IMG/VR virus record: IMGVR_UViG_2703718869_000027
Source: a virus
Lineage: Duplodnaviria > Heunggongvirae > Uroviricota > Caudoviricetes
DNA: 13,537 nt
Direction: 5' to 3' (one strand)
Shown here: positions 3,001 to 6,000 of the stretch, piece after piece
Layout: each line of letters opens with the position of its first letter
Position numbering within the stretch: position 1 is the first letter of the stretch
Program-made: the position numbers

Positions 3001-6000
3001 TGTTACGAAGGCATTCGCGAAGCATCGCGCCGCTGAACCAGTCCGTCGCGAATATCTGCCAGGCTATCACGAAAGCCGTGACGGGCTTAAAGCACTGGGC
3101 GCAGAACGTCACCATTACATCAACCTTGCCCGCACTGAAAATCGCTTCGCTGGGCTGGCTGTAGGCGAGCGTCAGAGCGCGGGAGAGCAACAGTTAGGCT
3201 TACTGATAGTCATGCAGAAAATCGAGCAGGCAGCATTTAACGAGGCGATACAGAACGGCATGACACCGACCGAAGCGGTGCGGGAAGTTGCTCGCCGCAT
3301 GGAGACGTTCGCCAGCCTGATGACGTCAGCGCCGTCTCTGGGGGTGAATCATGCGTAATTATGTTATCCCTCCCAATCATGAAGGCGGTTATATTTATGT
3401 GGCGCTTTCTGACATTGGATTAGTTAAGGTTGGAAAAACCAGAAATGTTTCAGCCAGAATGAAACAGCTATCCACTGGTAGCGGCATAGTAATCACTAAA
3501 GTCGAGGTGTTAGGGCCATTTGTTAATTACGGACAAGTCGAATTAGCTATTCATGCAAAACTTACATCAGAACGCCGTTCTGGTGAGTGGTTTTCTGCTG
3601 ATTTTGATACGGTTAAAGCAATTGCTATCGATACATCAGGAATAGGTACTCCTGGTGCGGAATTAGTTAACAACGATGCTTATCGCTACGAACGCGTGTT
3701 TTTATGGTTTAGTGCGCATGAGGAACAAATTAAATACGAACAAGCACTTTGCGAAATATTATCTGATACGGCAATTAACTTTCTTAAGGAGTATGGCACA
3801 GCTTGCGCCCCATATGTTGCTTTATGTATTCACACAATGGGGGGTGTAACTCTTCAACAGGGACAAAAGGCCTACTCTGTATATCCTTGTGGATTTAAAG
3901 AGTCCACATTGGATCAGTTAAGGGAGGATTGGAATAATTTTGCAGATAAAGATATTTTCGAAGACTCTGATTTTGATGATTTTCTTATAGACATAAGTGA
4001 TAAAGATAAATTTAAGTCAGAAGCTGAGGAATGGAGAACTGATGCAATAAATAATCTTTTCACAGAACTCACCGATGATTACCAGCGCTGGCTGGCCCGT
4101 CGCATGGGAGAGCATGAACATGCCTGACATCCTCAAACCTGCTGTCCGGTACATCGACACGGCGGATAAGTTCGCACTACTGAACATCAACCATGCTGAT
4201 TACATGCGCCATATCGTGAGCCATTTCGCCGCTGAGCGCATGAAACACGTTAAGCATTATCAGAAGGAGGCTTTATCAAATTATCGCACTGGTGGCCCTG
4301 TACGGCGCGAATATCCGCATGATGCAGGAATGGCAGGCAAAACAAAGGCGACCACGAAAGGGTCGCCAGTGGAGATAAAGGAAATCAAGCGCATCACCAA
4401 CTATGCCATGAGTGTAGCTGGTGGACAATGCTATCAGCCAGGCGGTCGGTTTTTAGTGGCTTTTAACCGCCGTGGGTATTTCTCGACAAAATCTTCAAGG
4501 GCAAATTTTTTAGCTTTTGTATGTGATGCCTTTGACTCGTCATCACATGTTTTTCCGCGCCTTATCCTGTTTTCAATAAAACGGGAGGCGGCCTTTTTAT
4601 TCAGCGATGAATCAATGGGGCTGCTCCCTGTTTGCTGCTCGACAATGGCATCCATGAGTAGTTGGTGTTGTAGTTGTCGTAAAAATTTCTCATCTTCTGG
4701 TGGTAAATCCATACTTATTTCCTGTACAGCGGAGCGACGCAGCACCTCACACCACGGCGCTGATGGTTGTTATTCGTTTTATGGAGTCAAAGAAGCAAAA
4801 GCGGATCGCTATCGGTTTTTAGGCGAGATTAATCGCCGTGGGTATTTGTCCAGAAATGCCTCAAGCGCAAATCGTTTTGGTCTGGTGAGAGGAGAGGGAT
4901 TAAGCAAAGACTCACGTTCCAGGCGTACTTTTTCGCGCTGGCGCTCAAGTATGGATAATGCGATTTCCTGTAATTCTTCATTTGTCATTGTCTGTACCCG
5001 TAAAGCGGTGCGCTGTAGTACCTCATATCACAGCGCAGGTATTTTTTATGGTTGTAATTTGCGTGATGATTCAGGTCGCTTTGCGACATACTGCATAAAC
5101 ATAAATAACGTGATGTTATTATGTGCTTTCAAAGAAAACGCAGGTATTTTTCGCACAAACTTCTCTCGCAACACATCCGACCACTTAAGCAAAAAAGCGG
5201 CATATACTGAGGCTATCCCTTATAAAACGGGGATCGGGCGTAGGAACCCGTTTAATCAGTACAAGGCGACACAGGCGCGCCCAGCGTCTTTTTTTGTGTC
5301 ATGCCATCGCGCAACCATACCCAGCGGCAAGGCCCGTACTGTATCTATGGTGGCGCTGGTGGGGCAGCCGAAAGGCTGGCCGGTTTCCTTGTACGCCGGT
5401 ATTCCTACCCCCGCCAGCGTCACCGCCCTTTATGAGCGTAGGAACTCCAGCGGTGACTCCTTAAAACAGTACAAGGAGGCCTTTCACATGGCTGTATCCG
5501 CACGCCCTTACTTTGTCTGGCGCTTTATGCAGTGCCTGACAGACAGCATTGCAATATTCACCGTTACCGCTGCCACTGAGCGCGAAGCACGCGCCCAGCT
5601 GCCGCACGCACATCTTATTTTTGTCGCCCGTATCCGTCAGGAGGTGACTCATGCTTAAAACCTTCCGCGTCTTTTCCCGTGCTGTTAATAAGCGCGGCTA
5701 TACCGTTGGCATCACGCAGAACGTGAAGGCCGAAAACGTCCAGGCTGCAATCAGCACAGTAATTAACAAATCAGCTAAAGCCGGTTTATCCGGCGTAATT
5801 ATCCACGCAGTGACATGTATTCAGGATGAGGAGTAATTCATGTGTGATTTTTCCGATATGACTGTTGATGAAGCAGCAAAAAGCGCAATGCAGGCAGAAC
5901 TTATTTGTTCTCTGATGATGGGTAACACAGGTGAAATGACTGAGGGTGAGATTGAGTCATTGCTCGCCCTGATTAAGCAGCTTACAGGTAAGGCAGGTAG

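Follow-up and report, generated by a model that had tools for sequence, protein, structure and literature searches.

A C4 and IsrK-like RNA cassette in an Escherichia coli phage satellite, very probably homologous to the immunity regions of P1/P7 and P4

The virus record IMGVR_UViG_2703718869_000027 (Caudoviricetes) carries, at positions 5215–5479 of the 13,537 nucleotides analysed here (the window), two structured RNAs ahead of a small Icd/Kil-like gene. This segment is, with high probability, the immunity-RNA cassette of a satellite of the phage-inducible chromosomal island (PICI) type, homologous to immI of phages P1 and P7 and to the seqA–cI–seqC–kil region of satellite P4. By analogy with these systems, the cassette most likely holds the replication genes of the E. 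coli phage satellite off. The assignment draws on membership of the RNA families, their fold and covariation, the complementarity of the targets and how it co-varies among loci, overlap with a ribosome-binding site (RBS), and the identity of the downstream genes, all of them observed here. A preliminary description of the stretch had suggested a structured small RNA or a cis-acting site of unknown function. Both descriptions apply, in that two structured RNAs recognized by Rfam and supported by covariation are accompanied by cis targets, termed a1/b1 and a2/b2; the function can be named by homology as P1/P7 c4 and P4 CI immunity, with the duplicated motifs serving as antisense targets.

Structure and conservation of the C4 and IsrK-like RNAs

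When searched against Rfam at gathering thresholds, a check that the preliminary description had itself proposed, the whole window gave exactly two matches, both within the stretch which that description had singled out. The C4 antisense RNA family (RF01695) matched 5343–5430 over model positions 1–87 of 87 with 81.3 bits (gathering score 45; E = 4.6e-15), and the isrK family (RF01394), the equivalent of P4 seqA, matched 5215–5294 at full length with 51.8 bits (gathering score 50). In a permissive scan, the c4-a1b1 family (RF03163), described as the a1 and b1 targets of C4, additionally appeared at 5202–5254 with a sub-threshold 24.6 bits. These RNAs, like every other element of the cassette described below, lie on the plus strand.

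The C4 segment, of the type also known as P4 CI, folds with a minimum free energy of −51.5 kcal/mol into the structure of the family (z −5.9; none of 200 shuffled sequences was as stable), and this fold is unchanged when the full 286-nt leader is folded. Its long closing stem (5349–5364 with 5409–5424) surrounds two hairpins and a 3′ bulge. The first inner hairpin (5365–5378), CAGCC-GAAA-GGCTG, is the GAAA-capped hairpin that had already been recognized; the second (5379–5400) displays the b′ loop UUCCUUGUAC (5385–5394), and the a′ bulge AUUCCUAC (5401–5408) follows. Conservation was assessed in 13 fetched loci together with E. coli relatives, from which 15 C4 cassettes were aligned (P1, P4, D6, phiKO2, APSE-7, Stx phages and others). 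In this alignment 97.3% of cells can pair, and 15 of 27 base pairs show compensatory changes (59 cells), a score reached by none of 500 shuffles; sliding the register by 1–3 columns lowers pairing to 32–50%. The length of C4 varies among loci by 1–3 nt, from 85 to 89 nt.

Upstream, the IsrK or P4-seqA-like leader RNA (5215–5295) is composed of hairpin 1 (5215–5234), hairpin 2 (5235–5250), which presents a1 (GCGTAGGAAC, 5238–5247), a single-stranded b1 (CAGTACAAGG, 5257–5266), and an intrinsic terminator. The terminator, identified by a terminator-like site score, comprises a GC-rich hairpin at 5273–5289 and the T7 run at 5289–5295, and so gives an identity to the GC-rich tract followed by T7 of the preliminary description. 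Across 14 homologues, 88.8% of cells are paired in the isrK fold and 8 of its 18 pairs have changed on both sides; helix 1 alone is 90.8% paired, with such changes in 5 of 7 pairs. The comparison across homologues that had been proposed thus favours the C4 and isrK folds, but not the 7-bp hairpin (5225–5253) that had also been pointed out. Although its stem (5225–5231 with 5247–5253) can form, at −9.9 kcal/mol it is unremarkable against shuffles (z −1.2); in the same 14 homologues only 68.8% of cells pair, with almost no covariation. We therefore rejected it as a conserved fold in favour of the two-hairpin isrK structure.

Related RNA pairs occur in a wide range of elements. By BLAST, the segment is ~73% identical in P1-like phages (RCS47, D6, JL22); the C4 core occurs in P4, in phiKO2 and other Klebsiella phages and in an Actinobacillus phage, and the isrK part in many Stx phages. 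Rfam finds C4 at 69–84 bits in every fetched locus; the E. coli 07_3636 island is the sole one in which it places neither isrK nor c4-a1b1 immediately ahead of C4. The isrK–C4 pair precedes icd, ant or bro genes in RCS47, D6, P4, phiKO2, Kp 48ST307, Apl-pPE4, Stx1 and Stx2 phages, phiP27, Sal3 and APSE-7, and P1 shows the arrangement a1b1–C4.

Antisense targets and the proposed control of the Icd-like gene

The direct repeats noticed earlier at a distance of about 200 bp are exact: GCGTAGGAAC recurs as a2 at 5436–5445 and CAGTACAAGG as b2 at 5467–5476, with spacings of 198 and 210 nt. The composite pattern GTAGGAA-N(5–35)-GTACAAGG occurs three times, twice on the plus strand and once as its reverse complement at 5387–5408 inside C4; this lies far beyond chance, the expectation for the a–N–b pattern in 200 shuffles being 0.00. 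Thus the exposed a′ and b′ of C4 are complementary to targets on both sides of it, a1/b1 upstream and a2/b2 downstream, on one transcript. Specifically, a′ (5402–5408) pairs with GTAGGAA (−9.3 kcal/mol), and b′ (5386–5394) is exactly complementary to 5469–5477 and extendable through 5479 (−14.9 kcal/mol). The a1 region (5235–5246) likewise pairs with 5402–5413, with 92% complementarity over 12 nt. The Shine–Dalgarno (SD) sequence AAGGAGG (5473–5479), situated 8 nt ahead of the ATG at 5488, is overlapped by b2; the b′–b2 duplex spans these positions and therefore buries the SD. In this pairing, b′ reads CCUUGUAC and b2 GUACAAGG.

The complementarity is retained while the sequences themselves change. 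Although a′ and b′ vary by locus, each locus keeps matching a1/b1 and a2/b2 sites, with b2 running into an SD of AGGAG type. For the downstream a2/b2 duplex, cognate pairs average −22.4 and non-cognate pairs −12.6 kcal/mol, and the cognate target is the best for 15 of 15 cassettes; for upstream a1/b1, the corresponding values are −19.7 and −13.1 kcal/mol, with the cognate target best in 13 of 15 (0 of 20,000 permutations attained the cognate mean in either case). Both upstream misses are cassettes whose a1/b1 lies farther from C4 than the fixed search window reached. Between the window and module 1 of E. coli 07_3636, a close relative, the a sites show no difference, whereas b1, b′ and b2 have each been altered in concert: CAGTACAAGG in the window against CTGTGAGG for b1, CCTTGTAC against CCTTACAG for b′ (the b′ of 07_3636 module 1 being also given as CCUUACAG), and GTACAAGG against CTGTAAGG for b2. 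Such a joint change is the pattern expected of a switch in immunity specificity, as between P1 and P7 (PMC12197685).

The gene whose RBS is covered (5488–5658) encodes a 56-aa Icd/Kil-like protein (53.5 bits to NF033153 phage_ICD_like, cut-off 25; PHROG matches), the first gene under putative C4 control. Its stop codon overlaps the ATG (5651) of the next small open reading frame (ORF); two further small ORFs follow, and then a D5-type primase gene (6462–8285). The preliminary description had set its structured RNA against a plain 5′ untranslated region of this 56-aa gene: the cassette is indeed the leader of that gene, but in this family the leader yields a regulatory RNA.

In P1 and P4, RNase P releases a stable ~77-nt C4/CI RNA from the leader, and this RNA represses in trans, giving immunity. 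By analogy, the ends of the transcripts and the way they are processed can be proposed for the window, as can translational repression and termination. Transcription would start near 5215, and the majority of transcripts would end at the terminator (5273–5295) to give an ~80-nt IsrK/seqA-like RNA with a1 and b1. Transcripts reading through would hold the C4 domain, from which a stable RNA of ~77–80 nt may be excised as in P1 and P4. Its single-stranded a′ bulge and b′ loop would pair with a2/b2 of the leader, hiding the SD of the Icd-like gene; with translation of that gene blocked, the coupled small ORFs and the primase would be kept off in quiescence through polarity or premature termination. 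In cis, a1/b1 could act as a second pairing site, providing an alternative leader fold with C4; in trans, the short IsrK-like RNA could titrate C4 and lift repression, as shown for Gifsy-1 IsrK. In P1 and P7, c4 blocks translation at the RBS and sets heteroimmunity (PMC12197685), and PMC4825925 describes P4 CI, seqA and seqC and the mechanism of IsrK.

A putative promoter at 5180–5208 consists of a −35-like ACCACT (5180–5185), a 17-nt spacer and a −10 TATACT (5203–5208), with a predicted transcription start near A5215. It aligns with a conserved TTGACn-17/18-TATAnT ahead of isrK in 11 homologues, the −10 being kept, and we infer that it is the promoter of the cassette. The degenerate −35 is also present in the closest E. 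coli relative compared (07_3636), and satellite cassettes with such an element may rely on an activator or on read-through from upstream. Farther upstream, in the divergent intergenic region, the exact 13-mer CGCAGGTATTTTT occurs twice (5034–5046 and 5139–5151), 105 nt or ~10 helical turns apart, the first copy coming after an 8-bp inverted repeat (5009–5016 with 5030–5037); the pair could be operators or promoter elements.

Several points weigh against reading the segment as a working immunity cassette. The isrK score is marginal relative to its threshold. The proposed −35 matches the consensus at only 3 of 6 positions, and a sigma-70 consensus scan called no promoter here, so that its expression may be weak or depend on an activator. 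Beyond the closing stem of C4, the 3′ tail reads GCCC, and processing by RNase P would follow from analogy. In addition, the sequence would be compatible with translational repression as in P1, Rho-dependent termination as in P4, or both, and expression of the cassette at this locus is a prediction.

Alternative explanations and the long open frame

Foremost among the alternatives, although improbable, is that the cassette is a decaying, non-functional relic of a deletion between two tandem cassettes. Many E. coli relatives do carry two tandem a1b1–C4–a2b2–icd cassettes with differing a′/b′ (e.g. 9216–10185 of locus L001 and 1351–2620 of L014), the second being P1-like. Window positions 5000–5528 correspond to module 1 of E. 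coli JNEC-KY208 (99.2% identity) and 5475–6100 to the icd end of module 2 in 07_3636 (99.8%), the two matches overlapping by 54 nt (5475–5528). The single cassette is consistent with a module-1 RNA part joined to a module-2 icd by deletion or recombination between cassettes, and this junction, together with the poor −35 and the missing promoter call, is what a relic might look like. However, each of the three a sites and three b sites is still perfectly matched, the C4 fold is intact, with a score behind only phiP27 and Sal3 among the 15 cassettes, and neither the Icd-like ORF nor the ORFs coupled to it downstream are disrupted. Moreover, E. coli SCU-106 also has a single cassette whose isrK–C4 part (5150–5449) is 99–100% identical to the window, and relatives share the same weak −35.

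Somewhat less probable still is a leader or attenuator of the icd-like mRNA that acts exclusively in cis, through its terminator and an RBS-sequestering fold, with no trans-acting small RNA released. An intrinsic terminator does lie 50 nt upstream of C4, and every pairing partner is on the same transcript. A local hairpin at 5456–5479 also sequesters the SD: in the whole-leader fold, ACUCCUU (5456–5462) pairs with AAGGAG(G) (5473–5479), leaving the remainder of b2 in the loop. This hairpin would hide the SD even without C4, and may represent a second, cis-acting layer of control. Against an exclusively cis-acting element, homologues of these RNAs build up as discrete species in P1/P7, P4 and Gifsy-1, and those of P1/P7 and P4 act in trans for immunity (PMC4825925, PMC12197685). 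The C4 domain is also autonomous and very stable in its fold, and specificity swaps coordinated at three sites match selection for immunity groups, as in the heteroimmunity of P1 and P7.

The preliminary description erred in stating that no protein-like frame covers the stretch. A stop-free plus-strand frame of 527 codons (4075–5658) starts inside the end of the GIY-YIG gene (3351–4127), which it overlaps by 53 nt, and crosses isrK, C4 and a2/b2; its last part is, in frame, the Icd-like gene. Residues 377–476 (nt 5203–5502) match Pfam PF10554 (Phage_ASH) with 75.9 bits. The chance of such an open frame is ~1e-5 (the product of the fractions from synonymous-codon and mononucleotide shuffles), the other five frames having 15–30 stops. 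In relatives, the Prokaryotic Genome Annotation Pipeline names the same frame an 'ash family protein' or a 502–550-aa 'Icd-like protein'. Both 07_3636 cassettes, P4, phiP27, Sal3 and Stx1 likewise have this frame open and in register with the gene downstream; that of Stx2 F039 becomes open only inside isrK and stays so from there, and phiKO2 has a shorter stop-free frame across isrK–C4.

That the stretch is simply protein-coding, the Phage_ASH or Eta-like part of a 527-aa protein with incidental RNA features, is nonetheless scarcely credible. The RNA is conserved also in P1, RCS47, D6, APSE-7 and Kp 48ST307, where isrK and C4 are not spanned in full by any frame; Apl-pPE4 has a single spanning frame, a short one that terminates directly behind C4. 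The conservation is therefore explained by the structure of the RNA and not by a protein sequence. Variability of C4 columns by codon position is 0.775, 0.816 and 0.822, with no third-position excess or periodicity, and the stem pairs change on both sides in a compensatory manner; the conservation therefore follows the RNA fold. The 1–3-nt length shifts of C4 and a 22-nt indel adjoining it in an O157 relative speak against this reading, as does the Cys/Ser/Arg-rich middle of the translation, which is antisense to a conserved minus-strand gene. A translated frame and an RNA gene are compatible in any case, P4 eta being an example. Frame openness in the 15 cassettes and codon-position variability thus rule out protein coding as the cause of conservation, while translation through the region may still occur. 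PF10554 may to a large extent capture a conserved RNA gene in translation, or a frame that ribosomes merely pass through, and not a functional protein domain.

The long frame, though not the reason for the conservation, fits the published P4 eta model. As in P4, it begins upstream of the internal promoter, crosses the seqA, cI and seqC equivalents and is in frame with icd; the P4 counterpart lies at 1186–1839 of the P4 locus compared (L006). In PMC10111431, translation of P4 eta from the upstream promoter is reported to carry transcription through the immunity region, and upstream-promoter transcripts translated along 4075–5658 could likewise pass the cassette regardless of immunity. It is conceivable, though we consider it doubtful, that selection has kept all 527 codons open as an extended eta-like 'immunity bypass' frame which, together with the tandem cassettes of differing a/b specificity in relatives and the recombinant single cassette of the window, would reflect a modular immunity rewired by recombination in E. 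coli satellites. If so, ribosomes from upstream, coupled to GIY-YIG, would travel ~1.4 kb, running antisense to a small conserved minus-strand gene and on through a divergent promoter region, the isrK terminator and C4, and transcripts from the upstream promoter would be insensitive to C4. The relatives that have this frame open share at least 92% identity, and the 77%-identical ones are remnants disrupted by insertion sequences, so that the comparison of openness covers closely related lineages. The N-terminal 120 aa of the frame gave no family match.

Two minus-strand ORFs, at 4434–4745 (103 aa) and 4809–4988 (59 aa), lie antisense to the long frame. They are paralogous and share the C-terminal motif K-x-F-A-L-E-x-F-x-x-K-Y-P-R-R-L...K-N-R; neither had a match in Pfam, NCBIfam or PHROGs. 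In island remnants (L016, L017) that are 77% identical at the nucleotide level, the protein sequence of the 4809–4988 product is conserved, and this is the sole argument that this minus-strand ORF is real. O157:H7 relatives carry a single copy, the difference being an in-frame deletion of 366 bp. These ORFs may encode divergently transcribed regulators of the island.

Island setting and comparison with known systems

Domain matches place the cassette within a satellite-like gene order, all on the plus strand: a tyrosine integrase (1–1323), an AlpA/HTH_17-like ORF (2242–2571), a Rha-family protein (2639–3358) and the GIY-YIG/T5orf172 nuclease lie upstream, followed downstream by the small ORFs (5651–6285, from the ORF layout), the D5_N/DUF5906/Pox_D5 primase, SSB (9018–9467), a ProQ/FinO protein (9484–9900), PerC (9920–10213) and antiterminator Q (12643–13041). 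A scan of the whole window found no tRNA gene. In E. coli chromosomes, BLAST and the annotation of relatives place near-identical islands between yicC and dinD. Domains of the P4 hallmarks sid, delta and psu were not found among the window ORFs scanned, and the primase is of the D5_N/DUF5906/Pox_D5 type and not of the alpha type, which sets the element apart from P4-like satellites sensu stricto. It is better filed with the Gram-negative PICI-type satellites (int, AlpA-like, Bro zone, primase; PMC10111431, PMC13612085); their four-zone plan of Integration, Bro, Replication and Late (PMC10111431; PMC13612085) agrees with the gene layout of the window. It is a matter of speculation that the ProQ/FinO-family RNA chaperone, whose gene shares the island with this antisense-RNA immunity system, could help C4–target pairing, and equally that the antiterminator Q recalls the IsrK–AnrP–AntQ circuit of Gifsy-1.

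The cassette type is already known: it is curated in Rfam, detectable with standard tools, and of the textbook C4/CI plus IsrK/seqA kind. C4 and isrK matches in Gram-negative PICIs have been published (PMC10111431), and the RNA families have been studied experimentally in P1/P7, P4 and Gifsy-1, so that the case carries little weight as a discovery; what is mildly unusual is limited to the long, eta-like frame and to the tandem cassettes with their recombination. The value lies in annotation, since RefSeq relatives label the RNA cassette an 'ash family protein' or a 500-plus-aa 'Icd-like protein', which masks the real regulators. In addition, the a/b sequences define the immunity group of the island and could predict cross-repression among co-resident satellites or phages.

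One close parallel is immI of P1/P7 (a1b1–c4–a2b2–icd–ant; RF01695, RF03163), with P1-like phages at ~73% nucleotide identity to the window. Both share the closing stem, two inner hairpins and bulge, the short exposed a′ and b′ that pair with a target copy on either side, and a b2 that overlaps the RBS of a small Icd-like gene translationally coupled onward. In both, a/b changes define specificity in a heteroimmunity pattern, seen here against E. coli 07_3636. By contrast, the window operon consists of small ORFs and a D5-type primase, whereas that of P1 encodes the antirepressor Ant. Furthermore, the upstream target of the window sits within an IsrK-type RNA with its own intrinsic terminator, whereas P1 matches only c4-a1b1 and not isrK, and the cassette-spanning open frame has no equivalent in P1.

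Satellite P4 (PLE–seqA–cI–seqC–kil, nested in eta, ahead of the alpha primase operon) agrees with the window in element type and in what is controlled, being a satellite with a primase/replication operon under control. The isrK-like and C4 matches stand in the same order, and the Phage_ASH model matches the translation of the window region. For P4 there is likewise (PMC10111431) a long stop-free frame from upstream of the internal promoter across seqA, cI and seqC, ending in frame with the small Kil/Icd-like gene. In contrast to P4, the window lacks detectable sid, delta and psu and has the look of a PICI (int, AlpA-like, Rha, GIY-YIG, D5 primase, SSB, ProQ/FinO, PerC, Q). Its frame of 527 codons is more than twice the 217 stop-free codons of P4 and also runs antisense through a conserved minus-strand gene. 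The a/b sequences differ, the P4 C4 being ~72.5% identical, and Rho-dependent termination has been demonstrated for P4 only.

The third relative is the isrK–orf45 (STnc1160)–anrP locus of Salmonella Gifsy-1 (RF01394), where a short terminated IsrK and a read-through form arise from one promoter (PMC4825925). There, IsrK pairs through its middle part with the C4-equivalent region farther down, and a stable processed RNA is found downstream (PMC4825925), which corresponds to the pairing of 5235–5246 with 5402–5413 in the window. The downstream gene of Gifsy-1 is, unlike the Icd-like gene here, the antirepressor gene anrP, IsrK is described as a trans activator, and the window matches the isrK family only marginally (51.8 against 50). 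The Gifsy-1 circuit acts via antiterminator Q, and the island in the window also encodes a Q-family antiterminator.

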